From the IMG/VR virus record IMGVR_UViG_3300045988_022585: 16,878 nucleotides of DNA, one strand, 5' to 3'. The translations under genes and the position numbers were made by a program. The DNA comes from a virus. The notes beneath the pieces were generated by a model. It had not been told where the DNA came from. It saw only the letters and a list, made by a program, of their open reading frames with translations, and did no database searches. Within the stretch, counting starts at the first letter, position 1. Each line of letters begins with the position of its first letter. Of the stretch, positions 1 through 16,878 are shown in pieces.

Positions 1-34
1 GAGGTATATGTACACACGCCTACATAAAAATACT
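1..34. repeat. Left inverted terminal repeat (34 bp), presumed replication origin
   Basis: GAGGTATATGTACACACGCCTACATAAAAATACT is the exact reverse complement of 16845-16878. The match breaks at position 35. Confidence 0.95.
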
Positions 35-2953: not shown

Positions 2954-3376
2954 ATGGAAAACGCTATGACTACTACCAATGACAAGATGCTGGACTTCAA
3001 CGCATTCAACAGAGAGACTAATCAGTTCGTTTCCTTCCGCGCCGAAGATATGAAGAGTAAGGTCAGACTGTTCAACGCCATGAATCAGCCGAAGTACAAA
3101 GTCAGCGACATGATTAACAAGAAGATCAAGCTCAAAGACGTTATTCTGATGAACGTCACAATGGAGGGTGAAGATGGCGAACAAGACACCGGAATTCGTT
3201 CCGTTCTGATTGATGCTGATGGAAATGCCTACAATGCGACCTCTAACGGCATCTTCTCCAGTCTCACGAATCTGTATATGATCTTCGGCACTCTCCACTT
3301 CGAGGACCCGCTGGAAATTCTGATTTCTCAGATTCCCACTAAGAGAGGTTCTACTCTCTCTATCACTCTTCCCTAA
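2954..3376 (+). CDS. Candidate single-stranded DNA-binding protein (140 aa)
   Basis: AAAGGAG at 2938-2944 precedes ATG 2954. The gene lies directly upstream of the TP and polymerase genes, as gene 5 does in the phi29 early operon. The sequence is beta-rich and OB-fold-like (KLKDVILMNVTMEGEDGEQDTGIRSVLIDADGNAYNATSNG). The call rests mainly on position. Confidence 0.35.
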   Translation: MENAMTTTNDKMLDFNAFNRETNQFVSFRAEDMKSKVRLFNAMNQPKYKVSDMINKKIKLKDVILMNVTMEGEDGEQDTGIRSVLIDADGNAYNATSNGIFSSLTNLYMIFGTLHFEDPLEILISQIPTKRGSTLSITLP

Positions 3377-3449: not shown

Positions 3450-4211
3450 ATGGCAAAATCTAAAAGAGGCGGACCGCCTAAAGGATGGAAACAGGCTGAG
3501 TACAACCTATTTAAGCGTCAAGTAGCGAACTACAATAAGCGAGTTAGAGCATTAAGAAAAAGGACAAGGCCAGAGCTGTTAAAATTTGCGCCAGAACCAA
3601 CGACAGTAAAAGGGCTGTTAGCAAGCCAGGGGAAAAGAGAAGCTAAGAGAACAGCTAAAGCATTAGAGCAGTTCAGAGAATCGGGTTTGAAATGGACAAT
3701 GTATCAAGGACAGCCCATGCTTAAAGCTCAGAAAGCAATTATAGAACGCAATCTAGAACGTGAAAATAAGCGGCGTAGGCAATTAGCAAAGAAGGTTAAA
3801 GAAGCACAAGCTCAAACAGGACGTTTACCAACTCAGATAGATCAAGATTTGAGAGAGGAACAATTTGAGCAGTTGACTCCGCGAAGATTAGCAGATTTAA
3901 TGAGGTTAGACTATACACCAGTTATAGATAGAAGAACAATAAATTGGAATACAAACTATATTTCACAACTAGAGGAAAACCTTCAATTCATGGAATTAAC
4001 TGGAGCCGGAACAGAAGAAGCTATGCAAATGGTAAGAGAGATTGAGCAGATGGCAACAACGATAACACCAGAAGAGTTTTATCTTGTTCAACGCTCTGTT
4101 CCTGAGATAGCTATTACAAACATTTCTGACGTTCCATATTTTATGAACAATATCGCATCTGTTCATAGAAGATGGTTACAGTTCTATGAGTCAAGAGGTT
4201 ATAGACTATAA
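3450..4211 (+). CDS. Terminal protein (protein primer for DNA replication), 253 aa
   Basis: AGGAG at 3437-3441 precedes ATG 3450. The protein is highly basic and lies immediately upstream of PolB, as phi29 gene 3 does. By eye, N-terminal KQAEYNLFKR resembles phi29 DKAEYARLVK. C-terminal ITPEEFYLVQRSVPEIAITNISD resembles phi29 IPPDDFYELFLRISEISFEEFDS. The candidate priming Ser is codon 226 (TCT, 4125-4127). Confidence 0.75.
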   Translation: MAKSKRGGPPKGWKQAEYNLFKRQVANYNKRVRALRKRTRPELLKFAPEPTTVKGLLASQGKREAKRTAKALEQFRESGLKWTMYQGQPMLKAQKAIIERNLERENKRRRQLAKKVKEAQAQTGRLPTQIDQDLREEQFEQLTPRRLADLMRLDYTPVIDRRTINWNTNYISQLEENLQFMELTGAGTEEAMQMVREIEQMATTITPEEFYLVQRSVPEIAITNISDVPYFMNNIASVHRRWLQFYESRGYRL

Positions 4212-5875
4212 TTGCTTGCGACTTTGAGACAATCGTTAACGACGAGCGTACAAGAGTCTGGGCATGGTGTGGAGTACAAGTAGAGAGTGAAAAGATTGAA
4301 TACGGGACGAAAATAGAAGACTGGCTAACATACGCATTTAGTTATGGAGAAGTTTGCTACTTTCACAACTTGAAATTCGATGGTTCTTTTATAGTAGATT
4401 TTCTATTTAGATTAGGCTATGAATGGAGTTCAAAAAGAAGGCTTGATGAAAAGACATTCACAACTCTTATCTCTGATATGGGAATGTGGTATACTATCAA
4501 GATCAGAGGCGAAGATGGGCCAGGAGGATTGAAACGAGAAGTTACAATATATGATAGTTTAAAGATCATTCCAATGCCAATCTCTCAAATGCCTAAAACG
4601 TTTGATATTGGATTAGAGAAACTAGACCTAGATTATGAAGGAGACAGAGAAGAAGGCCACGAATTAACAGACCATGAAAAGCTCTATATTAGAAATGATA
4701 CATTGATTTTGGCACGGGCTTTAAAATTCATGCGCGAGCACAACATGAAGAAGCTAACAACAGCTTCAAATGCTATGAACGATTTTAAAACCCGTTTAGG
4801 AAAAGCAGAATTTGATAGACTGTTTCCTCCGTTAGATGCAATAACTGATAGAGATATTAGAATGAGTTATAAAGGCGGTTTTACATATCTCAATCCTGTT
4901 TACAAGAATAAGCCTATTGGCAGGGGACAAGTTTATGATGTTAATTCAATGTATCCATGGGCAATGAAGTTTTGTAAACTCCCTTACGGAGAGCCTGTTT
5001 ATTTCACTGGGCAATACGAAGAGGATGAAGGTTATCCATTATACGTTCAATCCCTCGTATGTGATTTCAAATTAAAACCCGGTTGTGTACCATCAATTCA
5101 GATCAAGAATAATTTTCATTATTCAGAAACAGAATACCTAAGAGAGTCAGAAGTAGAAACCGTATTAACTTTAACAAGTGTAGACCTAAAGTTGTTTTTC
5201 GATAACTATGATGTGACCGTATATTCATGGGAAGGTGGATATAAATTTAAAGGTATGGTTGGTATGTTCGCTGACTATATCGACTATTGGTATGAACAGA
5301 AGAACGAAGGAAAGAGAACAGGAAATAAAGGTTTAACTCAGATTGCTAAGTTGATGCTTAACTCACTGTACGGGAAATTCGGTGCATCTCTTACAGGAAG
5401 ATCAAAGATTCCACAGTTTGACAGAGATCAGGATAAGGTAACATATTACTATGGAGCAGAAGAGAGCAGAACAGCCTATTATGTGCCAGTGGCATCCTTT
5501 ATAACGTCTTATGCGCGTGATAAAATCATTCGTGCGGCTCAGCAGTTGGGTGAAAGATTTATTTACGCTGACACAGACTCACTTCACGTTAAAGGAACAG
5601 AACCGGCAGATATTGATATTGACGAATACAGATTAGGAGCGTTCAAGATTGAAGAAGAATTTGACCATGCTGTTTTCATTCGTCAAAAGACTTATATGGA
5701 AAGCATAAATGGAAAGAATGACGTAAAGTGCGCAGGAATGCCTAAGAATATCAAAGAAACAGTTACATTTGATAACTTCAAAGAAGGCGCTACTTTTGAA
5801 GGCAAGTTAATGCCTAGAATAATACCAGGTGGGACAATCCTGCGAGAAACAACGTTTAAAATCAAGTCAAAATAA
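4208..5875 (+). CDS. Protein-primed family-B DNA polymerase (phi29 gp2-like); N-terminus extends upstream of the track ORF and the start codon is non-canonical or unresolved
   Basis: The frame stays open back to TAG at 4202-4204 and encodes T-I-I-A-CDFET (ExoI). Other motifs are YFHNLKFDGSF (ExoII), YIRNDTLILARAL (ExoIII), DVNSMYP (motif A), KLMLNSLYGKFG (motif B), YADTDSLH (motif C) and RQKTY / VKCAGMP. All of these closely match phi29 polymerase. Confidence 0.95.
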   Translation: MIACDFETIVNDERTRVWAWCGVQVESEKIEYGTKIEDWLTYAFSYGEVCYFHNLKFDGSFIVDFLFRLGYEWSSKRRLDEKTFTTLISDMGMWYTIKIRGEDGPGGLKREVTIYDSLKIIPMPISQMPKTFDIGLEKLDLDYEGDREEGHELTDHEKLYIRNDTLILARALKFMREHNMKKLTTASNAMNDFKTRLGKAEFDRLFPPLDAITDRDIRMSYKGGFTYLNPVYKNKPIGRGQVYDVNSMYPWAMKFCKLPYGEPVYFTGQYEEDEGYPLYVQSLVCDFKLKPGCVPSIQIKNNFHYSETEYLRESEVETVLTLTSVDLKLFFDNYDVTVYSWEGGYKFKGMVGMFADYIDYWYEQKNEGKRTGNKGLTQIAKLMLNSLYGKFGASLTGRSKIPQFDRDQDKVTYYYGAEESRTAYYVPVASFITSYARDKIIRAAQQLGERFIYADTDSLHVKGTEPADIDIDEYRLGAFKIEEEFDHAVFIRQKTYMESINGKNDVKCAGMPKNIKETVTFDNFKEGATFEGKLMPRIIPGGTILRETTFKIKSK

Positions 5876-5900
5876 TTGTCGAGCCGATTGGAAAACGAAC

Positions 5901-5929
5901 TTGACAAGTGTTGAAAGAAGGTGTACAAT
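5901..5929 (+). promoter_or_regulatory. Near-consensus sigma-A/70 promoter (probable late promoter)
   Basis: TTGACA (5901-5906), an exact 17-nt spacer, then TACAAT (5924-5929). It sits in the polymerase-ATPase intergenic gap. Confidence 0.7.
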
Positions 5930-5935
5930 AGTAGT

Positions 5936-6046
5936 GGGGCAGTATATGGTTTTCGTTTCCACGATTCGGGAGTACAACGGCGAAGAGTCGGCCTGGATGT
6001 GACTGGGGTTTGTATCCTGTGACGCTACAACTGTATATATGCCCCG
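5936..6046 (+). ncRNA. Candidate structured RNA (pRNA-like packaging RNA or regulatory leader)
   Basis: About 100 nt downstream of the promoter have no ORF and no SD and look more GC-rich than the flanks. GGGGCA(G)TATAT (5936-5947) pairs with ATATATGCCCC (6035-6045) as a closing helix of 6+5 bp with one bulged G. Internal hairpin candidates lie at 5979-5993 and 5995-6017. The region is immediately upstream of the packaging ATPase. Confidence 0.35.
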
Positions 6047-6056
6047 CTCTAATATT

Positions 6057-7046
6057 ATGAGTAAATCAATGTATTATGACATAAACAAAACCTTGTCATA
6101 TAATACTCTATTTAATTTCGTTGTTGGTCCTCGTGGTGCAGGTAAGACTTATGCGGCAAAAAAGCGAGCTATAAGTAACTTCCTTAAAAGGGGAGAGCAA
6201 TTTGTTTATTTACGCCGCTATGATACTGAGCTTCCTTCAAACACAATTAAGAACTTCTTCGATGATGTGATGCAGGAGTTTCCAGATCATGAGTTTAAGT
6301 CAAATCTAGGTATATTCAGAATAGATGGCGCAATAGCCGGATGGTATTTTCCGCTTTCTAAAGCCACTATGATGAAATCAACTCCATTTCCCAATGTAAG
6401 CATGATAATCTTTGACGAGTTTATTATTGACGTGGGCATGGTGCATTACCTTCCTAAAGAAGTAACAGCTTTTCTTGAATGCTATTCGACTGTCAGCAGA
6501 GATCGAGACATACCAGTATTTTTCCTCTCTAATGCAATTACATTTACTAATCCATATTTTCTTTACTTTGATATAACTCTTGAAGAAGGCCAGAGACTAA
6601 AGATAAAAGGTGACATATCTTTAGAGCTTGTGGAAAATCCAGCTTATACAGATCATGTAAAGAATACGAGATTTGGCAAATTGATTGCTAATACAGAGTA
6701 CGGAAAATATAACATGGAGAACAAGTTTCTTAGAGATACGGATACCTTTATTACAAAGATGTCAAATAATTCTTTCTATGTTGCAACGCTTATTATGCAG
6801 AATCAGGAGTTTGGCATTTACCGCGATATGAAAGATGATTTAATGTTTATCTCTGAGAAGATCGACCCGACCGCTAAGAAGTTAGTATTGGACACTGATT
6901 CACATAACGGTGATACTCTACTTGTTAAAATGCGAGGAAGTGTTGTTATCAATATGCTTCTTGATTACTACACAAAAGGCAATGTTCGGTTCGAGACACA
7001 GAAAGCTAAAAATATGGCCATTGATTTGTTTAGGAGGTTAATATAA
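6057..7046 (+). CDS. DNA packaging (encapsidation) ATPase, phi29 gp16-like; start at ATG 6057 (or 6039)
   Basis: Walker A is GPRGAGKTY and Walker B is MIIFDEF. By eye there is extensive similarity to phi29 gp16 (LSYNTLFNFVVGPRGAGKTY, GEQFVYLRRY, QEFPDHEF, YPNVS-like, LSNA...NPYF). MSKSMYYD from ATG 6057 aligns with the phi29 N-terminus MDKSLFYN. Neither ATG has an SD. Confidence 0.93.
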   Translation: MSKSMYYDINKTLSYNTLFNFVVGPRGAGKTYAAKKRAISNFLKRGEQFVYLRRYDTELPSNTIKNFFDDVMQEFPDHEFKSNLGIFRIDGAIAGWYFPLSKATMMKSTPFPNVSMIIFDEFIIDVGMVHYLPKEVTAFLECYSTVSRDRDIPVFFLSNAITFTNPYFLYFDITLEEGQRLKIKGDISLELVENPAYTDHVKNTRFGKLIANTEYGKYNMENKFLRDTDTFITKMSNNSFYVATLIMQNQEFGIYRDMKDDLMFISEKIDPTAKKLVLDTDSHNGDTLLVKMRGSVVINMLLDYYTKGNVRFETQKAKNMAIDLFRRLI

Positions 7047-7375
7047 TGCCGTTCGAGTTTAACACAGACGCTTGGAACGAGTTTACAAAGAAAGTTCTTG
7101 AAGCCAATGGAGATCAAGCCACGCTTACCACTCTTTTGAGTGATATGCAGGATACATTTACAACAGGAATTACAACGCAGGGAGAACTGGATAAAACAAA
7201 CAAGAGTTTAAAAGAAGAGAATGGAAGATTGAAAGAAGCAAATATGGCTCTGTTTCTTAGAGTTGGTGAACAGAAAAAGGACTCTCAGGAGCCTGAAAAA
7301 TCCGGAGAGCCTAAACCCGGCGAAGAAGGTCACGCCGTAGACAAATTTTTGGATAATCTATATAAGGAGAAATAA
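7046..7375 (+). CDS. Head scaffolding protein (phi29 gp7-like), 109 aa
   Basis: AGGAGG at 7032-7037 precedes the start, and there is a TAATG overlap with the ATPase stop. The protein is coiled-coil and acidic. ELDKTNKSLKEENGRLKEANMALFLRVGEQKKD resembles phi29 gp7 [33 protein letters not shown]. It lies directly upstream of the capsid gene. Confidence 0.7.
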   Translation: MPFEFNTDAWNEFTKKVLEANGDQATLTTLLSDMQDTFTTGITTQGELDKTNKSLKEENGRLKEANMALFLRVGEQKKDSQEPEKSGEPKPGEEGHAVDKFLDNLYKEK

Positions 7376-7378
7376 ATT

Positions 7379-8416
7379 ATGGCTAGTAACAAGACTCCGC
7401 AAGTTGCTTCTGCTGAGATGCTTAACAGCATTCGAGCAGACGCTTCTGATGCTTATAAGAATGCGGTCCCCGTAGCAACTCCGTATAACCTCGCTGACGT
7501 TGGCAACCCTATTCTCACTTACGAGGCAGTTGCAAACGAATTTCTGAATGCCCTTGTTAACAAAATTATTATGACTCTCGTTATCAGAAAGACTTGGAGC
7601 AATCCTCTGGCAATGCTTAAAAAGGGCACTGAGGCGCTTGGTCTTGACGTTGAAGAGATTCAGGTTAACCCCGCTAACGCAACCGCGTTTGACGGTACGA
7701 CTGAAAATGGCTATTCTGACATTTTGAAGCCCGCTCTGCCTGATGTGAAGGCAGCTTGGTATCGTCTGAACCGTCAGGATAAGTATAAGGTTACTATCAA
7801 CAATGAAATGCTGACTAACGCATTCACTTCCTGGAATACTCTGGAAGGCACGATTGCCGCTATTGTTGACAGCCTGTATAATGGTAATACCATTGACGAG
7901 TTTAAATACACAAAGCAGCTCATTGATAATGCTCTGACTGGAACAAAGCTCAATACAGTTACTGTTACGGCTCCTACTAATAGAGACACGGCGGCGGCTT
8001 TCCAGCAGACTATTCAGAACCTCTCCCTCCAGTTTCAGTTTCCTTCTACCGCATATAATAACTACACTAAAATGGGTGGTACTGGAGGTCGTACAACCTG
8101 GAGTTCTATTGAGGACCAGATTATCATTATTAACGCGGAAGTTGCGTCCGCTGTTGGTGTTCAGTTCTTGGCGGCAGCATTTAATCTGTCTTACGCTGAG
8201 TACGCAACGAAGCAGATTATCGTGGATAGCTTTGCCGCTAGTTCTAAGTGCCTCGCAATTCTGGCTGATGTGAACGCTTTCCAGATTAGAGAAAAACTGC
8301 GTCGTATGACCAATTTTTATAATGCTGGTAATATGGCATGGCAGTATTATTTCCATTGTTGGGATACCTTCTCCCTGTCTCCGTTCCATAACGCTGTCGC
8401 TCTGGTTACTGAGTAA
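7379..8416 (+). CDS. Major capsid protein (phi29 gp8-like, lacking the C-terminal Ig-like domain), 345 aa
   Basis: AAGGAGA at 7363-7369 precedes the start. By eye, NSIRADASDAYKNAVPVATPYNLADVG...LVIRKTWSNPLAMLKKG matches phi29 gp8 [27 protein letters not shown]...VVIRQVSLNNPLKKFKKG. C-terminal WQYYFHCWDTFSLSPFHNAVALV matches [23 protein letters not shown]. Confidence 0.9.
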   Translation: MASNKTPQVASAEMLNSIRADASDAYKNAVPVATPYNLADVGNPILTYEAVANEFLNALVNKIIMTLVIRKTWSNPLAMLKKGTEALGLDVEEIQVNPANATAFDGTTENGYSDILKPALPDVKAAWYRLNRQDKYKVTINNEMLTNAFTSWNTLEGTIAAIVDSLYNGNTIDEFKYTKQLIDNALTGTKLNTVTVTAPTNRDTAAAFQQTIQNLSLQFQFPSTAYNNYTKMGGTGGRTTWSSIEDQIIIINAEVASAVGVQFLAAAFNLSYAEYATKQIIVDSFAASSKCLAILADVNAFQIREKLRRMTNFYNAGNMAWQYYFHCWDTFSLSPFHNAVALVTE

Positions 8417-8425
8417 ATTAAATAT

Positions 8426-8453
8426 GGGAGGGGGTCTTTACAGGCCCTCTCCC
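8426..8453 (+). terminator. Hairpin after the capsid gene (attenuator/terminator-like)
   Basis: GGGAGGGGGTC (8426-8436) pairs with GGCCCTCTCCC (8443-8453), giving 11 bp including 2 G-U pairs, with loop TTTACA. The SD of the next gene follows directly and there is no U tract. Confidence 0.4.
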
Positions 8454-8466
8454 TGGAGGTAAAAAT

Positions 8467-10509
8467 ATGCCTATTCTTTCCCCAACAACTAGAATATACC
8501 TATGTGAGAATGCAGGTATTACAAAAGATCATAAAGCATATTTTAGCTCCAATTCTGCAATGATCTCTTATCTGCAAGGCAAAGTAGCGCATTCGTTTAC
8601 AAACTGTACTTATCAGAGAGCTGATGAGCGAGAGTACACGCAGTTAAACATTGATTACTATGATGCCTTAAAATGTGATGTAATGTTTTGGCAAAATCCG
8701 AACAACAGCACAAAATATCTGGTTGCACTTATTACCGGCTTTGAATACTTGAATGAAGGAACAACTAGAATTTATTTTGAAATTGACCCTTATTCAAGTT
8801 TTTGCGGGGACATTGAATGGCAACCATGTTATGTAGAAAGGGAGCACGTTACAGGCGATTGGGTTGATGGTCAACCGAACTGGAATAATTGTGGTATTTC
8901 TGAACCAATTTCAGGCGCTCCTGTTGTAGTAGAAAACGAATTGACATATCCTCTTGTGCCTACAAGATATGTTATCTTGACTCCGTATAATGAGGACGGA
9001 CAAGTATCCATTCACGGCAATACTTTAGGCGGCATCTATTCAGGAATGAATATGATTGTTAAAAATACTGCCGAAGAGGTTGACGATTACCTGAATACTG
9101 TTGCGGTTCATATTGCCACAACACTGGATAACATTGGACCTATTCTTTCTGTTCCCTCTTTCTTCCTGAATGATAAAGAATGGGAAATGGGCACTTTACA
9201 GTCTCCATGGATAACGCTTAATGGGCATTTCAATAATGCAAAGGTGTACACTTCTCAATATACGATGCTGAGAGTAGAAGGAGCCGCCGGGAGACAAAAA
9301 GAATTTCTTCCCGAATTGATGGGACAGAACGGCCTCGCTACTCCACTCACTCAGTTATTCGCTAAGGGTGGGTTAATTGGAGGCATTGGTGGTTTCGCTG
9401 TTTATCTAAAGAACTATAAGGGTATTGAAACAAGTCTTGAAGATGCTTATTTAATTACCGATATGCCGTCAGGCGTTTGGGTTGGTAATAATCTTTTGGA
9501 TAATTGGCAGAACGCCATTATGAAAACAATTAGCGGAGGATTGAAGGGAGCCGCAGCCGGAAGCGTGGCAGGCCCAGGAGGAACAGCATTGGGCGCACTA
9601 GGAGGAGCAGCTTTATCTCTCGTAGGTATGGCAGATCAAATGGTTGCCTCCGGTGGTCAGGTAAATACAACAGCTAATGCCGCAGTTGCTTTTGGAGCTT
9701 ACAGAGTGTGCACACGATGGTATATTAGCCCCACTCAAATCATGGAAGCAGTTGACGATTTCTTTGATCGTTTCGGCTATGCCGTGGGGCTTCTTAAAAT
9801 TCCAAATGTAAACACTCGTCCTATTTGGAATTATGTGAAAACAAGTGAAGCTCACATTGGCGGAGACATTCCAGAGCATTATAGAGAGCAAATTTGTGAT
9901 ATGCTGAATAATGGCGTCACATTCTGGAATGTAAATAGACGTTCAATCGGTGATTTCTCTAACCCATCCGCTAATCAGATTGAGAACTATAGTTATGATG
10001 ATTTCTTAGAAGACCCACCCTTCCAGGAGTATGACCCGCCTAAGCCAGACCCGGAACAGCCGGACCCACCTGCCGCTGATGATTTTAGTGTTCTTCCAGA
10101 CGAAGTTGTGGAATATTCTTTAGCTGCTGATGGAGATACTTATTTAAGTAAGAATTTCAAAGTCAGAGAGTTCAGATGCCACGATGGTAGTGATAAAATT
10201 CTTGTGAGTAAAAGACTTGTTGAGCTGTTACAAATCATTCGTGACCATTATGGAGTACAAGTCATTATTAACAGCGGATATAGAACCACTTCCCATAATG
10301 CCGCTGTTGGTGGAGCCGCTAAGAGTCAACATCTTTATGGCCGTGCCGCTGATATTGTAGTAACTGGACAGACTCCGCTTAATGTTTATAATTGGATAGC
10401 CAATAACGTTATGCCTTCTGGAAAGGGGGGTATGGGGTGTTACAGATCACAGGGTTTTGTCCACGTTGATGTTCGTCCCTCTGGTTACTGGAGAGACAAC
10501 AATGTGTAA
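8467..10509 (+). CDS. Tail knob / distal tail tube protein (phi29 gp9-like) fused to a C-terminal peptidase M15A-type cell-wall hydrolase domain, 680 aa
   Basis: N-terminal VMFWQNPNNSTKYLVALITGFEYLNEGTTRIYFEIDP...YVEREHV resembles phi29 gp9 [36 protein letters not shown]...IVREHV. There is a Gly/Ala-rich hydrophobic segment (about 9535-9660). FGYAVGLLKIPNVNTRPIWNYVKT resembles gp9 [24 protein letters not shown]. A Pro-rich linker (about 10010-10085) is followed by SGYRT..HN..VGGA..SQH..GRAADI...FVHVDVR (10141-10506). Confidence 0.85.
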   Translation: MPILSPTTRIYLCENAGITKDHKAYFSSNSAMISYLQGKVAHSFTNCTYQRADEREYTQLNIDYYDALKCDVMFWQNPNNSTKYLVALITGFEYLNEGTTRIYFEIDPYSSFCGDIEWQPCYVEREHVTGDWVDGQPNWNNCGISEPISGAPVVVENELTYPLVPTRYVILTPYNEDGQVSIHGNTLGGIYSGMNMIVKNTAEEVDDYLNTVAVHIATTLDNIGPILSVPSFFLNDKEWEMGTLQSPWITLNGHFNNAKVYTSQYTMLRVEGAAGRQKEFLPELMGQNGLATPLTQLFAKGGLIGGIGGFAVYLKNYKGIETSLEDAYLITDMPSGVWVGNNLLDNWQNAIMKTISGGLKGAAAGSVAGPGGTALGALGGAALSLVGMADQMVASGGQVNTTANAAVAFGAYRVCTRWYISPTQIMEAVDDFFDRFGYAVGLLKIPNVNTRPIWNYVKTSEAHIGGDIPEHYREQICDMLNNGVTFWNVNRRSIGDFSNPSANQIENYSYDDFLEDPPFQEYDPPKPDPEQPDPPAADDFSVLPDEVVEYSLAADGDTYLSKNFKVREFRCHDGSDKILVSKRLVELLQIIRDHYGVQVIINSGYRTTSHNAAVGGAAKSQHLYGRAADIVVTGQTPLNVYNWIANNVMPSGKGGMGCYRSQGFVHVDVRPSGYWRDNNV

Positions 10510-10520
10510 GGAGGATTATT

Positions 10521-10961
10521 ATGCAAAATGAAGCTAGGATTTATAGTAAATCTCTTGAAGGTGATAAACAGCTGACTTCCTCTTTTAAGGTAAAAGAGTT
10601 TGCCTGCAATGATGGGAGTGACGTTATTCTGATTCACCCTGATCTTCCAGCCGTATTGCAGAATATTCGCAATCAGTTCGGAAAACCCATTATCATTAAC
10701 AGTGGTTACAGGACTCCCGAATATAACAAGAAGGTGGGAGGCGCTACTCGCTCTCAGCATTGTTATGGTACTGCCGCTGATATTGTGGTTGACGGCGTTT
10801 CTCCCGCTTCTGTTGCCATTGCCGCTGAAAAGGCATTGAAAAAGACTGGATATCCTGGTGGGATTGGAATCTATAAGAGTTTTGTTCACGTTGATGTCAG
10901 ATCAAAGAGGTATAGATGGGACCAGAGAAGCGGTAAAGAAGTGGCGGTGAGCGGGTTTTGA
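10521..10961 (+). CDS. Endolysin, peptidase M15A-type (zinc D-Ala-D-Ala carboxypeptidase-like fold), 146 aa
   Basis: AAGGAGG at 10505-10511 precedes the start. The motifs are SGYRTPEYNKKVGGATRSQHCYGTAADIVV...FVHVDVR. It is paralogous to the C-terminus of the tail knob protein and is followed directly by a holin-like gene. Confidence 0.85.
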   Translation: MQNEARIYSKSLEGDKQLTSSFKVKEFACNDGSDVILIHPDLPAVLQNIRNQFGKPIIINSGYRTPEYNKKVGGATRSQHCYGTAADIVVDGVSPASVAIAAEKALKKTGYPGGIGIYKSFVHVDVRSKRYRWDQRSGKEVAVSGF

Positions 10962-11164
10962 AAACCGTAACTAAATTCGTTGTATTCTGCATTACATTTC
11001 TGGTTCTCTATACTATCGCCTCACTTATTATCTTTTATAAGACCGGATATGAAGCATCCACTCTCACAAATATGGTTTTCACTGTATTCGGGATTGAACT
11101 GGTATCCTGTATGGTAAAGGCGATTATCAATGGAAGGAATAAAGGAAATGGAAGCTCTACTTGA
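10958..11164 (+). CDS. Holin candidate (68 aa, two TM segments, charged C-terminus; TTG start)
   Basis: The TTGA overlap with the endolysin stop suggests coupling. Two hydrophobic helices are present (FVVFCITFLVLYTIASLIIF and MVFTVFGIELVSCMV), with a basic tail RNKGNGSST. Confidence 0.6.
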   Translation: MKTVTKFVVFCITFLVLYTIASLIIFYKTGYEASTLTNMVFTVFGIELVSCMVKAIINGRNKGNGSST

Positions 11165-11456
11165 AACAGCTAAAAACATTTCTCTAATCGCTGGAGCGGT
11201 TGCAGTTGTTTGGAGGGTATTTACCTTTACTTCCAATATCGGTAAAAAGATTGACACTAACTCTGACGAAATCAGAGATATAAAAGAAAAGTTAAATAGA
11301 GATTATGACAAGATAGATAAGTTAAATCAAGCAGATAAGCATATTTGTCTGTTCCTGGTTGATATATCAGATCACATGATAAATGGAAATCATATAGACA
11401 AACTGAAAGAGACAAGGAAGAATGTTATCACTTTCTTATCTGAGGGGGTAGATTGA
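11130..11456 (+). CDS. N-terminally membrane-anchored coiled-coil protein (lysis accessory / antiholin-like?); start at 11130 or 11148
   Basis: A single hydrophobic segment (ISLIAGAVAVVWRVFTF) is followed by a charged helical region. The gene overlaps the holin 3' end. Its function is not recognisable. Confidence 0.5.
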   Translation: MEGIKEMEALLETAKNISLIAGAVAVVWRVFTFTSNIGKKIDTNSDEIRDIKEKLNRDYDKIDKLNQADKHICLFLVDISDHMINGNHIDKLKETRKNVITFLSEGVD

Positions 11457-12409
11457 TGTTTCCTCTTATGGATGCCTTCCCCATTCTTTCACTACCTGAT
11501 TTTAGAGTTAACACTAGCGGATTAACTAAACGGCAAACAAAGATGCTTAATACCATTCAATTTGCCGAAGTATTTTCCAGGCTAATGAATGTTATGCTTT
11601 CCAGGTTTAAATGGAATGGGCTTCCGGCGTCGTGCAATGAAAGGGCATTAGAAATTACTCTAGCATTCTACGGTTACGCATTGTTCTTTAATGACGAGAA
11701 TATCGGCTTTGCTCATACTCCTTGTACATTATCCGGCCCATTTAATATCTACTATGAGAGTGTTAATAGGCGGGCATACAGTTACAACTATGAGAAGAAC
11801 TACACGATTGATGATAGTGTGCTCATTAGGGGTAATTTAACAATGACTCCTGACTATCTCATTCTAATGAATTACGCTCCAAAGATTGCAGACGCCATTA
11901 GAGCTATTGACGTTCATACGCAGACTTTGAAAAAGCCTTATATGGTTTCTTGCGAAGAGCGTCAAAAGAACTCTGTTATTAGAGCTTTAAATGACATTGC
12001 AGACAATGAAGTAACTGTTCTGGCCGTTCCGAATTCAGGAATCAATACTTTGAGTGTTCTCACGACTGGAGTACAAAGCTACCTGGGAGATATGTGGGCG
12101 AACGTCAAGAATATGTTCAATCAGGTGTACTCCGCTTTAGGAGTAGCAAATGAGTTTACTTCCAAAAAGGAAAGACTAGTTGTAAGTGAGAGTCAGGGAG
12201 AACAAACGCCTATTAGACACTCTCTGGAAAGCGAGCTTGAATGCAGACGTAAAGCGTGCGAAGAGATTAACAAGATGTTCGGCCTTAATATTTCTGTTGA
12301 AGCAAATCAGCTTGAACAGTTTAAGGAAGAGCAGATTGAAGACCTATTGGCAAAGATGGGACAGCAGGTGGAAGGAGGGAATGAAAGTGTTTCCATGGAA
12401 TCCGATTAA
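11456..12409 (+). CDS. Portal / upper collar connector protein (phi29 gp10-like)
   Basis: GAGGGGG lies upstream, and ATG 11456 overlaps the previous stop as TGATG. [28 protein letters not shown] resembles phi29 [37 protein letters not shown]...[18 protein letters not shown] resembles KKERMVTDE...REEACEKINELYGLNVKV. Confidence 0.9.
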   Translation: [317 protein letters not shown]

Positions 12410-13457
12410 CCCTCGTAACTATGAGCTAGGCCAGCTTGTATCCACTGGCTATAAAGTCTTTGATGATACATGGAGCACCTATATTCCCGAACACAAAAGC
12501 GAGTTGTGCGCTAAGATTGTACGGCATTATTTCTTTTACGAAATTGGGCAGGATACTCCGGATAAGTTCAAGCTATATCTAAACGAAACACTTGAACGTA
12601 TCATGCCATTTTACAATCAGTTGTACAAAAGTGAGCTGATTAAGTTTGACCCCATTATGAATCATTTATTGGAGACGAATGGAAGGTCTATTGAAAATGT
12701 GCTGAGAAAAGCACAGAAGGGAGATAGCGAAGTAATTAGCGCATTAGAGAACTTCGCTAAATCCTCTAAAGGTATCACCAACTCCACACAGGGGACAAAG
12801 CAAGGTATCACAGAGCAAGAAGACTACAAGAGAGATTACACAGAAAACAAAGAGAGAACAGAGAACGAAACAACCGGAGTCAATAGGAAATTGGATGGCA
12901 CGGTCACAAGAGACGGTACAACTGATACCACGACTAATGAGACGGTTGCCGAAAATCATAACGGAGACAAGCGGTTTGCAGACACGCCGCAAACTACCGT
13001 TGGGGATAATCCAAATAACGCCTATATGACGAACTTCACAAAGGAGAGTCAAACCAGAGATACCACAACGAATGCAACATCTAACAGTACAATCCACCAA
13101 ACAGACGAAACAGACGAGACGGAAACAACTGATACTGACCGTAAATTAAATGGAACAGAAGATACGGTTGGAAATATCACTGATGAACGAACCAAAACTT
13201 CACAGCTCAATAGAGATGTTGATACAAAAGCTACTAATGATGGATTTGAGAACGGTTCTAGTAGCCAGGATACAAGCAAGGCAAAACAGACTCTTGAAGA
13301 CGAGTCTCAGACAACTGATGAAGGAAAGCATGAAATCATTTCCGGATTTATGAATATGACTCCATCTCAGCTTTTGCAAGGTTTCCGTGAAACATTCCTG
13401 AACATTGACGAACAAATCATTAAAGAGCTTCAATACAATTTCATGGAGGTATTTTAA
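12381..13457 (+). CDS. Lower collar protein (phi29 gp11-like) with a long Thr/Asp/Glu/Asn-rich central region; start at ATG 12381 or GTG 12387
   Basis: AGGAGG at 12373-12378 precedes the start. The gene follows the portal, as gene 11 does in phi29. N-terminal segments are NPRNYELGQL..FDDTWSTYIPEHK..IVRHYFFYEIGQDTPDKF..IMPFYNQLYKSE, and there is an RFADTPQ motif. The track start at 12186 would overlap the portal by more than 200 nt. Confidence 0.7.
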   Translation: MKVFPWNPINPRNYELGQLVSTGYKVFDDTWSTYIPEHKSELCAKIVRHYFFYEIGQDTPDKFKLYLNETLERIMPFYNQLYKSELIKFDPIMNHLLETNGRSIENVLRKAQKGDSEVISALENFAKSSKGITNSTQGTKQGITEQEDYKRDYTENKERTENETTGVNRKLDGTVTRDGTTDTTTNETVAENHNGDKRFADTPQTTVGDNPNNAYMTNFTKESQTRDTTTNATSNSTIHQTDETDETETTDTDRKLNGTEDTVGNITDERTKTSQLNRDVDTKATNDGFENGSSSQDTSKAKQTLEDESQTTDEGKHEIISGFMNMTPSQLLQGFRETFLNIDEQIIKELQYNFMEVF

Positions 13458-13784: not shown

Positions 13785-16544
13785 ATGAGTAATTGCAATC
13801 ACTACAAATGGGATGGCCATGGACATCCTCTGACTGATGGTTATTGCTATCCGGAGGGCTGTTGCCCCCCGGAGGGGCACAGACCTCCGCCCTGTGAGCC
13901 TGAGTTCTGTGCTATTCCTGTTCCCCCTCCCATTATGCCTGTTGTTCCACCTCCTGTTCCCGGCTTCAATCCGCAGGCTCAGATGGGGGCTGTAATTGAA
14001 AAGACAAATGAATGTATCAACCGTTGGAATTACATTCAGGCAAATTGCTTCAAGGCTCTGAACGATTGTGTAGGTGCGGCGAAAACTAGTCCTGTTTACT
14101 ATGATGACTGTGAAGTGCATCTTGAGCAGGGTTATTCCAGTGATGACAGCGCCGTTTACCATATCGTGCGTGTAAACAAGTTTGACAAGGCGGGTTGTCC
14201 CATTCGCGTCAAGTTGGGTCTTGCGTATGATAACCCCACGAACTCTAACGTTCGGCAGAGTATGCACGATTATAGCTTTGTCAAGAGTGCGAACGTCATT
14301 ATGACAGCTGTCAATCCAGCTCAGGAGGGATGGAATGGGCCGGCTATGTGGCGCGGCATGGCGATTGCCGGAACACCTAACACTGAGGGCTATATCGCTG
14401 GTTTCAATTCACTGGGCACTTTGAAGGTTTACAAGGGAAATGTCAAAACCACTAACCTGTGGCAGGATAAAATCGTTGATATGATTGGGGCTGTTACGCC
14501 CATTATTCTGGATAGCGAAATCACTGAGCAGGCAAAGACGCTGACCACTAAGAAAGCTATTACTGCTATCGGCTACAATAGTGGTTGCGGGCAGACTATC
14601 CTTTTCAATGTTGGCATTACTGAAAATCCCGGTATGCAGGGAATCACGGTTGCAAATATCCTGAAAGAGATGGGATGCAATACTGCTGTTATTACTGCAA
14701 TGCAAGATGCGACTGACGAGCCGTCTATTGGTATGCAGTATTTGGGCCGCTGGACTGATGTCCCCTCTCAGTACAATGACCCGCAAAACGTGGCCTTCTG
14801 GTATGTAAGCAAGCGTACTGAATGCGGATTCAAGAATGACTTTGAGACGGAGATCGCTAATCTAGTTCAGAGCACTGGCTATTGCGCTAACGGTATCACT
14901 GAGCTGAGAGACAAGGTGGAGAATGCGCAGGAGACGGCTGACGAAGCCCTCTCCCTTGCGCAAGATAACGCTGATAAAATCGCAACTATTCAGGGCCAGA
15001 TCACTGAAATTTATTCTAAGATTGATGCTCTGAACACTCGTCTCACTAAAGTTGAAGGCGATATTACCACGATTAAAGGACAGATCGACACAATCAATCA
15101 GCAGATTACCACTATTAATCAGGCTATCTCTAGCATTAGAGAAGAGATCAGTGACATAACTGAGCAGATTGCAGGTATTACTAGCTCCATTACTGATCTT
15201 ACGAATAGGGTTAAGACGGTTGAAGGTAAGGTAACAACCATTGAGGACAATATTAGCGATATTCAGGATAACATCACTAATATTGAAGATGATATTACCA
15301 ATATCAACAACGCTCTGGATGACATTAAAGGCGGAACAACTGAACTTCCTTACGTTAAGAAAGCCGGAGATACTATGACCGGCGCTCTTAATATGGGAAG
15401 TAATAAGGTGAGTGCTGTGGCAACGCCTACTGATGACGCAGACGCTGCCACTAAAAAGTATGTTGATGATAAGGTAAGCGGAGCAGAATACAAATTGCCT
15501 ATCGCTGGACCTACTAAACTTGGCGGCGTGAAAGTAGGTAGTGGTCTTAATATCACGGCTGACGGTACACTGAGCGCAACCGGAGGCGGCGGAGGGGTTG
15601 GAGATTATCTGCCTCTGGCTGGTGGTACAATGTCTGGTGACATTGTTATGAGTGATGGTACTAACATTAACTTCGACCAGAGCGGAAGTATCTATAATGA
15701 TAATGGTAGCGTTGTGGTAAAAAGCAATGGCTCTGTTGTCGGCATGGGTACTCAGGTAAAGATCCAAACCGAAGGCGGTGACCCTATTCAGATCAAGAAT
15801 GTGGCGAATGCTACTGAAAATGGGGATGCTGTTAACAAGGGGCAGATGGATGGTGAACTTGACCCCATTAAGACCGATATTAACGAGGTCAAAACTGATA
15901 TTACTAATATCAAAAACGGCACGGACGCTCTGCCTTATGTTAAGAAGAGCGGGGATACGATTAATGGAAATCTTCAAATAAATGGAAATGTAACCATTGC
16001 TAAAACAAGCGATCTTAGATTCACTGATGGCGGAAGTATTACGGTAACGCCTGGAGATGATACTAATCAAATTAGTATCGGAAACCTGCATGGTGCTGTA
16101 GCAGTTAAATCTAATGGTGATATCCTTCTCAGTGGACAGGGGGCTATTACATGTAACAACGACCAGATTAAGAATGTAAAAGACCCTACGGAGGCGCAGG
16201 ATGTTGCTACGAAGGCTTATGTGGATGCAAATGCGGGAGGAATTAGTGTTTACACTTATTCCAGAAACCAAAATGTAACCTTTGGAGGAAGCGGTTTCAC
16301 ATTATCATCTGATATTATCATCCCGGAAGGATTTCAACCGGCTGATACAAACAATCCGACAGCTTGCCTTATGTATAACTTTAATACAACTGCAAGTAGA
16401 TGCCTGTTTCTAGGCGGCCCAATTACTTATGACAGTAAAAGCAGAACCTATAATATCAACTTGCATTGGTATAGGAACACACAAGACACCGATGTAATTG
16501 GAAATTATAGTGTTAACTTTATTATCTTTATTAAAAAGGTATAA
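13785..16544 (+). CDS. Tail fibre / appendage (receptor-binding) protein, 919 aa, multidomain
   Basis: GAGG lies upstream of ATG 13785. The N-terminus is Cys/His/Pro-rich and is followed by a globular domain. A coiled coil of about 147 aa with an Ile heptad pattern spans 14889-15330. Repeated tail-fibre motifs are present: LPYVKK(A/S)GDT(M/I)xG twice, LPLAGGTMSGDI, and I/V-x-NV-x-(D/N)-(P/A)-T-x(3-4)-DA/V-x-(T/N)K-x-(Y/Q)-(V/M)-D three times. Confidence 0.85.
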   Translation: MSNCNHYKWDGHGHPLTDGYCYPEGCCPPEGHRPPPCEPEFCAIPVPPPIMPVVPPPVPGFNPQAQMGAVIEKTNECINRWNYIQANCFKALNDCVGAAKTSPVYYDDCEVHLEQGYSSDDSAVYHIVRVNKFDKAGCPIRVKLGLAYDNPTNSNVRQSMHDYSFVKSANVIMTAVNPAQEGWNGPAMWRGMAIAGTPNTEGYIAGFNSLGTLKVYKGNVKTTNLWQDKIVDMIGAVTPIILDSEITEQAKTLTTKKAITAIGYNSGCGQTILFNVGITENPGMQGITVANILKEMGCNTAVITAMQDATDEPSIGMQYLGRWTDVPSQYNDPQNVAFWYVSKRTECGFKNDFETEIANLVQSTGYCANGITELRDKVENAQETADEALSLAQDNADKIATIQGQITEIYSKIDALNTRLTKVEGDITTIKGQIDTINQQITTINQAISSIREEISDITEQIAGITSSITDLTNRVKTVEGKVTTIEDNISDIQDNITNIEDDITNINNALDDIKGGTTELPYVKKAGDTMTGALNMGSNKVSAVATPTDDADAATKKYVDDKVSGAEYKLPIAGPTKLGGVKVGSGLNITADGTLSATGGGGGVGDYLPLAGGTMSGDIVMSDGTNINFDQSGSIYNDNGSVVVKSNGSVVGMGTQVKIQTEGGDPIQIKNVANATENGDAVNKGQMDGELDPIKTDINEVKTDITNIKNGTDALPYVKKSGDTINGNLQINGNVTIAKTSDLRFTDGGSITVTPGDDTNQISIGNLHGAVAVKSNGDILLSGQGAITCNNDQIKNVKDPTEAQDVATKAYVDANAGGISVYTYSRNQNVTFGGSGFTLSSDIIIPEGFQPADTNNPTACLMYNFNTTASRCLFLGGPITYDSKSRTYNINLHWYRNTQDTDVIGNYSVNFIIFIKKV
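15246..15329 (+). repeat. Four degenerate 21-nt tandem units encoding the heptads DNISDIQ / DNITNIE / DDITNIN / NALDDIK
   Basis: Read directly from the sequence as gacaatattagcgatattcag gataacatcactaatattgaa gatgatattaccaatatcaac aacgctctggatgacattaaa. Confidence 0.8.
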
Positions 16545-16696: not shown

Positions 16697-16702
16697 ACGG
16701 TG

Positions 16703-16737
16703 AAGAAAAGAAGGCTCTTAATGGGCCTTCTTTTCTT
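16703..16737 (+). terminator. Strong hairpin at the end of the rightward transcription unit
   Basis: AAGAAAAGAAGGC (16703-16715) pairs perfectly with GCCTTCTTTTCTT (16725-16737). The 13-bp stem can be extended by C-G and U-G pairs. The 3' arm is U-rich but there is no separate U tract. Confidence 0.55.
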
Positions 16738-16744
16738 GCGTCAA

Positions 16745-16783
16745 TATAACACTGTTATATAACACTGTTATATAACAGTGTTA
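16745..16783. repeat. Three 13-bp-spaced palindromic boxes AACA(C/G)TGTT (operator-like array) next to the right ITR
   Basis: The units are TATAACACTGTTA (16745-16757), TATAACACTGTTA (16758-16770) and TATAACAGTGTTA (16771-16783). Positions 16761-16782 form a perfect 22-bp palindrome. Confidence 0.9.
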
Positions 16784-16844
16784 TCTGTAACATAGGTGGA
16801 GTGACATTTTAAATGCTTCTGCGAGAAGGGTTAATAAAGCGTCC

Positions 16845-16878
16845 AGTATTTTTATGTAGGCGTGTGTACATATACCTC
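16845..16878. repeat. Right inverted terminal repeat (34 bp)
   Basis: It is the exact reverse complement of 1-34. Confidence 0.95.

Follow-up and report, generated by a model that had tools for sequence, protein, structure and literature searches.

We found that an uncultured phage of the phi29 type, represented by the IMG/VR virus record IMGVR_UViG_3300045988_022585, carries a tail-knob gene in which a gp9-like knob is fused, within one open reading frame (ORF) and through a proline-rich linker, to an M15A-type peptidase, and that the gene which follows it encodes a stand-alone homologue of this peptidase. The record comprises 16,878 bp and we refer to this whole stretch of analysed DNA as the window. 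The fusion had been proposed in a reading made from the letters of the sequence without database searches (hereafter the sequence-only reading), and our Pfam, profile and Foldseek results confirm it. We consider it likely, with a probability of roughly 0.7, that the fused protein is a virion-tethered entry enzyme, that the free M15 protein is a separate endolysin and that the fused module was acquired. This reading builds on what we observed: the identities of the domains, catalytic motifs that are intact, conservation, the context of the genes and the recurrence of fusions elsewhere. The sequence-only reading was right in outline, as regards the knob-peptidase fusion with its probable role as an entry enzyme, the neighbouring endolysin and the retained membrane loop. 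Coordinates of all features are given in Table 1.

The first part of the 680-aa protein is, by sequence homology, a full-length gp9-type tail knob which has kept its internal loop. Its ORF is preceded by a strong Shine-Dalgarno sequence (GGAGG at 8455-8459). A profile built from 33 knob homologues matched phi29 gp9 (PDB 5FB4) with an E-value of 1.4e-83 (positions 7-523 vs 8-597), and Pfam assigned phi29_gp9_C to residues 343-497 (E = 2.9e-12, 46.6 bits vs a cut-off of 27), alongside a match to Caud_tail_N at residues 15-112 which falls just below the 27-bit cut-off (25.7 bits). In the AlphaFold2 (AF2) model of the fusion protein, the predicted local distance difference test (pLDDT) values of the knob body were mostly 76-96 outside the loop. 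When this model was searched with Foldseek, phi29 gp9 (5fb5, E = 1.1e-24), C1 gp12 (4eo2, E = 4.8e-20) and the Andhra knob (8egs, E = 3.5e-18) were the sole significant structural neighbours, each with a probability of 1.00.

The Gly/Ala-rich stretch which the sequence-only reading had likened to the membrane-active loop of gp9 does lie at that position, aligning to gp9 407-507 (the L-loop region), and extends over 9490-9660. Gly, Ala and Ser make up 49% of this loop, which contains few charged residues (n = 4), and pLDDT was below 50 at residues 342-393, as expected of a mobile loop; in phi29, L-loop residues 440-455 of gp9 are disordered (PMC6542822). The protein therefore resembles phi29 gp9 (5FB4/5FB5), C1 gp12 (4EO2) and Andhra gp12 (8EGS) in homology and fold over residues 1-506, in having an internal hydrophobic Gly/Ala-rich loop at the same position and in the placement of its gene among the capsid, connector and collar genes. 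Unlike these three proteins, which end where the unfused relatives end, it has 174 extra residues comprising the linker and the peptidase. The knobs of unfused relatives terminate in IGDFSNP.GNK followed by a stop codon, and the fused proteins run on from the same point.

The linker of the window holds 10 Pro and 11 Asp or Glu residues. Across the fused clade the linkers are 34-35 aa long, with their length and acidic Pro-rich character constant and their sequence variable, and the peptidase which follows begins with a conserved FSVLPDEV. Domain searches assigned Peptidase_M15_3 both to the region behind the linker (residues 564-668, E = 5.2e-23, 81.7 bits) and to the neighbouring 146-aa protein (residues 24-125, E = 1e-24, 87.2 bits), vs a cut-off of 23.2 bits in each case, and the two units are 48% identical over 138 aa (BLASTP, E = 3e-36), in keeping with the relationship that the sequence-only reading had described. 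A separate AF2 model of the fused domain had a pLDDT of 91.6; its top match in Foldseek was 1LBU (E = 1e-4, probability 1.00), and further neighbours were hedgehog N-terminal domains, VanY, LdcB and Ply500.

Both M15 copies carry SxHxxGxAxD, which holds zinc ligands, together with the FxHxD motif and the substrate-binding Arg of SGYRT, features which have been defined in this way for the M15A endolysin LysPM1 and for 1LBU (PMC13461873). The corresponding residues are S620-D629, F664-H666-D668 and R606 in the fused copy and S78-D87, F121-H123-D125 and R64 in the free copy, and every motif quoted in the sequence-only reading was present (SGYRT, SQHLYGRAAD or SQHCYGTAAD, and FVHVD), as was the Pro-rich linker. 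Residues H82, D89, H126, D128 and R66 were invariant across 122 aligned M15 sequences, and within the fused clade the zinc ligands, the substrate Arg and the acidic residue were strictly conserved. Judged by its motifs and its predicted fold, the fused domain is a complete M15A / Peptidase_M15_3 zinc peptidase of the LAS fold. The M15 family takes in both carboxypeptidases and endopeptidases. An internal start which would release a free M15 domain from the knob gene was also considered; there is no Met from the linker to residue 648.

The fusion was found repeatedly. A stop codon between knob and peptidase had been named as the observation that would split them into two genes; the frame is open in independent assemblies. 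The pair of 680-aa and 146-aa proteins is intact in the nearest public record, MT835826.1 (95% nucleotide identity across 99% of the window), a contig without annotation ("UNVERIFIED Bacteriophage sp.") which was obtained from human faeces in Mexico, and the fusion is likewise kept together with the free M15 gene in two complete or near-complete metagenomic genomes (L002 and L003) whose knobs are 60% and 50% identical to that of the window. All 15 of the listed members of a 673-member 90% cluster (P0001), which come from several data sources, are 680 aa long. Synonymous sites were saturated between the window and L002 or L003, and nonsynonymous divergence (dN) from L002 and L003 respectively was 0.19 and 0.27 for the fused M15 domain, 0.36 and 0.50 for the knob and 0.31 and 0.44 for the free M15 protein. 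Since dN was lowest in the fused peptidase, constraint appears to be strongest there, and on these comparisons the fused M15 domain is the most constrained (slowest-evolving) part of the fusion protein. The sequence evidence shows that the fusion is real, conserved and under selection.

Extensions at the same site were also found in other knobs. An exhaustive profile search with the knob part gave 8,709 cluster representatives at E ≤ 0.001, and Pfam was run on the C-terminal parts of the best 150 of these. Eight of the best 150 had C-terminal extensions of 150-235 residues starting from the same conserved end: Peptidase_M15_3 in the clade of the window (P0004), Peptidase_M23 in P0183, P0192 and P0202, Phage_lysozyme2 in P0262, CHAP in P0298, the binding-type Flg_new_2 (an InlB-type repeat) in P0221 and a 190-aa extension without a Pfam assignment in P0193. 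Pro-rich linkers were present in most of them. The knob parts of the extended proteins were 22-38% identical to one another, with the exception of P0183 and P0221, which were 49% identical and have differing extensions. For 7 of the 8, the nearest neighbour in the set was an unfused knob, and for P0183 it was P0221, followed by unfused knobs. Because of these unfused nearest neighbours and the low mutual identity, the fusions are taken to have arisen as independent events. We also found long 'Major tail protein' entries from uncultured podoviruses in BFVD. By these sequence comparisons, the C-terminus of gp9-type knobs is a recurrent fusion site which has been used for at least four wall-hydrolase families in uncultured phi29-like phages, and we regard this as the most interesting product of the follow-up.

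Searches of 50,697 deposited phage records with three queries, representing the M23, lysozyme2 and CHAP knob fusions, found none of them as a single ORF. One record, MT835939.1 (L063), was considered as a knob-lysozyme fusion, as P0262 was matched by tblastn over 97% of its length in one piece, and was rejected when 10264-13002 proved to hold two in-frame genes: a 544-aa knob, then a stop codon and 12 nt, then an in-frame 363-aa gene with a match to the P0262 extension that contains Phage_lysozyme2. A single point mutation would turn this arrangement into a knob-lysozyme fusion.

A wider proposal, which is possible and which we hold only tentatively, is that the knob C-terminus acts as a general plug-in socket, where M15A, M23, CHAP and gp13-type lysozyme modules on Pro-rich leashes could be swapped for one another and would replace a separate gp13 or tail-tip-lysin complex. 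If this were true and the module tracked host peptidoglycan chemistry, the tail of the knob would both determine host range and allow the type of host wall to be predicted for phages that lack a cultured host; such phages would also gate DNA release without a tail-tip plug.

The neighbouring gene encodes a stand-alone homologous M15 protein and sits in a lysis cassette, as the sequence-only reading had it. It has a strong Shine-Dalgarno sequence (AAGGAGG at 10508-10514), and its product matched the phrog_894 'endolysin' family with an E-value of 3.5e-40 and, by sequence, 1LBU with an E-value of 2.1e-7. The N-terminus of the protein (MQNEARIYSKSLEGDK) is hydrophilic and has no signal sequence, so a holin-like partner would be needed for it to reach the wall. 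The following 68-aa ORF, a holin candidate, begins at a TTG that shares nucleotides with the stop of the free M15 gene (TTGA), which suggests coupled translation of the free M15 protein and this ORF with two predicted transmembrane segments. In the nearest unfused relatives (L004 and L007, with knobs 46-47% identical to that of the window), a 520-528-aa knob is followed directly by a single free M15_3 gene and by similar small membrane ORFs 3' of it, and in another relative (L008) the slot between knob and connector holds an M15_4-like protein. From the overlap with the two-segment ORF, the use of this slot for a lysin in unfused relatives and the phrog_894 match, the most fitting role for the free 146-aa protein is that of the endolysin. 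Immediately upstream of the connector gene, the window and 8 of 8 relatives (L002-L009) have an ORF of 96-108 aa whose product has one hydrophobic helix and is otherwise coiled-coil-like; no family assignment was found for the 108-aa ORF at 11130-11456 or for its equivalents in the relatives. In L005 (1472-2092) and L009 (2545-3195), a Peptidase_M23 among the early-region genes, outside the knob-to-connector slot, is the sole detectable wall hydrolase.

The window ends in perfect 34-nt inverted terminal repeats (1-34 and 16845-16878, 100% complementary) and is therefore a complete linear genome of the protein-primed phi29 type, belonging to a gut phage that is uncultured. As the genome is complete, so is the inventory of wall hydrolases drawn from it. 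Among all ORFs of the genome, no wall-hydrolase domain was detected besides the two M15 units. None of the ORFs yielded a gp13 homologue (Phage_lysozyme2 and Peptidase_M23 domains), nor was any plug-like tail-tip protein detectable in the genome.

We compared the two M15 units to outside proteins of the same family. Used as the query in a database search, the fused domain retrieved 1,300 stand-alone M15 proteins; the top ones were 54-62% identical to it vs 48% for its own neighbour. A trimmed alignment of 130 sequences and approximately 130 columns, including 120 outside proteins, was used for distances and for a neighbour-joining (NJ) tree with 100 bootstraps and bipartition counting; this method is distance-based and its deep nodes are weak. 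Each of the 120 outside proteins had a smaller distance to the fused domains than the free copies had, and for 89 of them the distance to the free copies was smaller than that of the fused domains. The four fused domains formed a clade in 100/100 bootstraps and the four free copies in 70/100, and the two groups were sisters in ≤ 1/100. In the NJ tree the sister of the fused group was P0039, a free lysin from another phi29-like phage. The free copy of the window is 97% identical to that of L001, in which the fusion is intact too. A 19-residue C-terminal tail (G[KR]E[VI]xVxxF) is common to the free copies, that of the unfused L004 among them, and is absent from the fused domains and from 120 of the 120 outside sequences. 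A 2-residue indel before FxHxD was also tried as a lineage marker and was dropped, as it is polymorphic in outside sequences (53 short vs 27 long).

The distances, the bootstraps and the private tail place the fused module on a different branch of the M15 family and argue against its being a copy of its neighbour. As far as the sequences go, the free gene seems to be the resident lysin of these phages, and the fused module seems to have been acquired separately at the base of one clade. The suggestion in the sequence-only reading that one lysin fold had been duplicated was not upheld, the copies not being each other's closest relatives. The alternative would be a tandem duplication of the resident endolysin gene, with one copy then joined to the knob gene and the two units being sister paralogues. 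The units are adjacent, co-oriented, of the same family and about half identical, unfused relatives with their single M15 gene right after the knob stop (L004 and L007) would be an ideal starting point, and quick divergence of both copies afterwards could inflate the distance between them. There are also islands of nucleotide similarity at the codons of the catalytic motifs (10326-10361 vs 10754-10789, 81% over 36 nt; 10451-10472 vs 10876-10897, 91% over 22 nt). Set against this are the outside proteins which are without exception closer to the fused domain, the near-total lack of a fused/free sister grouping in the bootstraps, the position of P0039 and the tail that the fused domain does not have, and we therefore consider duplication unlikely, the separate acquisition being preferred. 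The nucleotide islands between the M15 genes may reflect either codon-level constraint or small gene-conversion patches.

Knobs of the gp9 family, among them those of phi29, C1 and Andhra, are hexameric (PMC6542822; PMC9710869), and a hexameric knob of the fused type would present six tethered peptidase domains per virion on the outside of the knob. After adsorption, the M15 domains would cut peptide stems or cross-links and thin the peptidoglycan locally; the knob would then reach the membrane, where its Gly/Ala-rich loops would insert as a channel, as in phi29, and the DNA would exit. The fused M15 domain would in this way do the job of phi29 gp13 and of the Andhra/P68 tail-tip lysin, for neither of which the genome encodes a homologue. 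It may be a functional analogue of gp13; judged by its sequence, it is not a member of the gp13 family. At the end of infection the free M15 protein, released via the holin, would lyse the cell. The Andhra knob is approximately 145 Å long and its chain runs in the order top, bottom, top, channel loop and C-terminal domain (PMC9710869). We estimate that a leash of approximately 35 residues would reach up to approximately 110 Å if extended.

Several points weigh against the reading of the fused protein as an acquired, virion-borne entry enzyme. We infer the presence of the full-length protein in particles and the activity of either domain, and likewise the bond specificity, the geometry and the split between entry and exit. 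The reach of the tethered domain is an estimate, and the Andhra paper is silent on where the C-terminus emerges (PMC9710869). The position at the very tip of the tail, as given in the sequence-only reading, is accordingly a conjecture. Unfused relatives (L004 and L007, and also L005, L008 and L009) have one detectable hydrolase each, so a tethered entry enzyme would not be obligatory in this phage group. The origin proposed for the module derives from NJ on approximately 130 columns with weak deep support. Finally, the Flg_new_2 repeat of P0221 and the Pfam-less domain of P0193 suggest that the fusion site is not reserved for enzymes.

The non-enzymatic repeat at the same site in P0221 would also fit a different role, in which the fused M15 domain would mainly bind the wall or recognise a receptor and so anchor the tail tip, with catalysis secondary or absent; LAS folds can bind, and hedgehog N-terminal domains are among the structural neighbours of the domain. 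We think this improbable, and more so than duplication, given the strict conservation of the zinc ligands, substrate Arg and acidic residue in the fused clade, the catalytic nature of the other families joined at this site (M23, CHAP and lysozyme) and the conservation of the fused domain, which is higher than that of the other parts of the protein. Slightly less probable again is a function at exit, where cytoplasmic knob protein, whether assembled or not, would reach the wall after the holin fires and add to the action of the endolysin. The knob is made late, with the lysis genes, one hydrolase suffices in the relatives, and the choice between entry and exit is itself a matter of inference. 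However, a dedicated free endolysin coupled to a holin candidate is kept in every fused genome, delivery by the particle better accounts for four enzyme families having been joined independently to one structural protein, and gp13 (PMC11476376) and the Andhra tail-tip lysin (PMC9710869) are precedents for knob entry enzymes. The idea that the fusion is an artefact, whether an assembly chimera or a sequencing error that erased a stop between two genes, recalls the split in-frame genes of MT835939.1 through which tblastn reads and has a negligible probability, as the open frame is kept in independent assemblies from differing studies and countries and down to 50% protein identity despite saturated synonymous sites, and the sequence at the junction is a linker of 34-35 aa and not an intergenic spacer.

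The preferred reading, of an entry enzyme on the knob and a separate endolysin, has parallels in known systems. The proposed role is the same as that of gp13 (PMC11476376) and the Andhra lysin (PMC9710869), namely a knob-borne wall enzyme for entry which is distinct from the endolysin. In phi29, gp13 consists of Phage_lysozyme2 and Peptidase_M23, and the lysin at the tail tip of Andhra (gp10) and P68 (gp11) of a glycosidase and CHAP; these are separate proteins which dock non-covalently at or into the distal knob in few copies (2 per virion in Andhra). Unlike them, the enzyme of the window is a single M15A domain, unrelated to gp13 in sequence and covalently attached to each knob subunit, which implies six copies.

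Both copies of the window are like LysPM1 (from a Proteus phage), the ST79 peptidase M15A (from a Burkholderia phage) and 1LBU (the Streptomyces albus G zinc D-Ala-D-Ala carboxypeptidase) in Pfam family, size (approximately 115-146 aa) and fold, and in the SxHxxGxAxD and FxH motifs and conserved Arg. LysPM1 and the ST79 peptidase are free endolysins of phages with Gram-negative hosts, whereas the window has one of its copies inside a structural protein.

Wall-hydrolase domains are found in tail proteins such as T4 gp5 (lysozyme), T7 gp16 (transglycosylase) and TP901-1 Tal (M23), and as lysin motifs in mycobacteriophage tape-measure proteins. Like T4 gp5, T7 gp16 and TP901-1 Tal, the fusion would be an entry enzyme built into a virion protein; unlike them, its carrier is a podoviral gp9-type knob, the enzyme stands at the extreme C-terminus on a long Pro-rich leash and its family is M15A. 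Among the 50,697 deposited phage records, no knob-M15 fusion was found in a cultured phage, and the sole match was the metagenomic MT835826.1. Knob-lysin fusions are not mentioned in a 2024 review of phi29-like phages (PMC11476376). In phrase searches of the literature we found no description of knob-lysin fusions and no paper which combines a tail knob protein with peptidase M15.

The phage phi29 is the textbook model of how a short-tailed phage crosses a thick cell wall, and its gp13 sits at the knob tip as a component of its own which is poorly resolved. A covalent fusion of knob and enzyme would fix both the stoichiometry, at one enzyme per knob subunit, and the attachment point, and as the fusion occurs in many human gut metagenome assemblies it offers a defined object for structural study of how an entry enzyme is presented. 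The independent joining of four enzyme families at the same residue points to a knob C-terminus that is exposed and tolerates additions, which could be useful for engineering phi29-type particles or for lysin design. A simple rule for annotating thousands of knob genes, whose labels so far are just 'major tail protein' or 'hypothetical', follows as well. That enzymes can be built into tail proteins is an old concept, which the knob fusion refines without adding a new principle.

Table 1 Features of the 16,878-bp window. Residue numbers refer to the protein named in the row.
Feature	Position	Strand	Basis or remark
Left inverted terminal repeat	1-34	.	34 nt, paired with 16845-16878, 100% complementary
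phi29-type single-stranded DNA-binding protein	2954-3376		
253-aa protein, terminal-protein candidate	3450-4211		Candidate on position alone
Type-B DNA polymerase	4370-5875		
gp16 packaging ATPase	6039-7046		
Scaffold	7046-7375		
Phi29_MCP capsid protein	7379-8416		
Knob-M15 fusion gene, 680 aa	8467-10509	+	ATG start
Knob part, residues 1-506	8467-9984	+	Full-length gp9 homology; Foldseek; AF2 model
Gly/Ala-rich hydrophobic loop, residues 342-398	9490-9660	+	Counterpart of gp9 L-loop / Andhra channel loop
Acidic Pro-rich linker, residues 507-540	9985-10086	+	AF2 pLDDT < 50 at 507-544
Fused Peptidase_M15_3 domain, residues 541-680	10087-10506	+	Pfam, AF2, Foldseek
Motifs of the fused domain	SGYRT 10273-10287; SQHLYGRAAD 10324-10353; FVHVD 10456-10470	+	
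Free Peptidase_M15_3 gene, putative endolysin, 146 aa	10521-10961	+	ATG start; Pfam; phrog_894; 1LBU
Motifs of the free copy	SGYRT 10701-10715; SQHCYGTAAD 10752-10781; FVHVD 10881-10895	+	
Small membrane-type ORF, 68 aa, holin candidate	10958-11164	+	Hydrophobic segments 1-30 and 35-58; charged C-terminus
Small membrane-type ORF, 108 aa	11130-11456	+	One hydrophobic segment, coiled-coil-like rest; second lysis protein or small tail(-tip) protein
Connector	11453-12409		
Lower collar	ends 13457		
919-aa coiled-coil tail protein	13785-16544		
Right inverted terminal repeat	16845-16878	.	Paired with 1-34

Hints to the host were sought in several genes. Relatives of the free M15 protein were mostly found in genomes and metagenome-assembled genomes (MAGs) of gut Clostridia such as Oscillospiraceae and Lachnospiraceae, which is a weak hint. 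By analogy with the trend described for phi29-like phages (PMC11476376), the unsplit knob and long lower collar would fit a Gram-positive-type wall. The 919-aa tail protein matched a contig of approximately 15 kb binned with a Rikenella MAG (31% identity, residues 34-819), which is possibly a mis-binned related phage; its other matches were mostly to a short segment at approximately 520-600 (45-70% identity) and came largely from Bacteroidota (Pedobacter, Microbacter and others). This tail fibre was rejected as a source of host information, as these matches leave no usable signal.

Nearly every gene of the window lies on the + strand. The DNA polymerase ORF has a TTG start and encodes 501 aa, while the polymerases of relatives have 512-572 aa; in L009 the polymerase (5278-6934) consists of two ORFs of 209 and 320 aa. 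A GC-rich stem-loop (GGGAGGGGG...CCCTCTCCC) without a trailing T-run is found at 8427-8453, in the gap that separates the capsid stop from the ribosome-binding site of the knob gene. Near the right end, at 16702-16792, there is a hairpin (gaaaagaaggc...gccttcttttc) followed by overlapping palindromic TATAACACTGTTATA units, which could be a terminator and then a replication-origin or protein-binding element.

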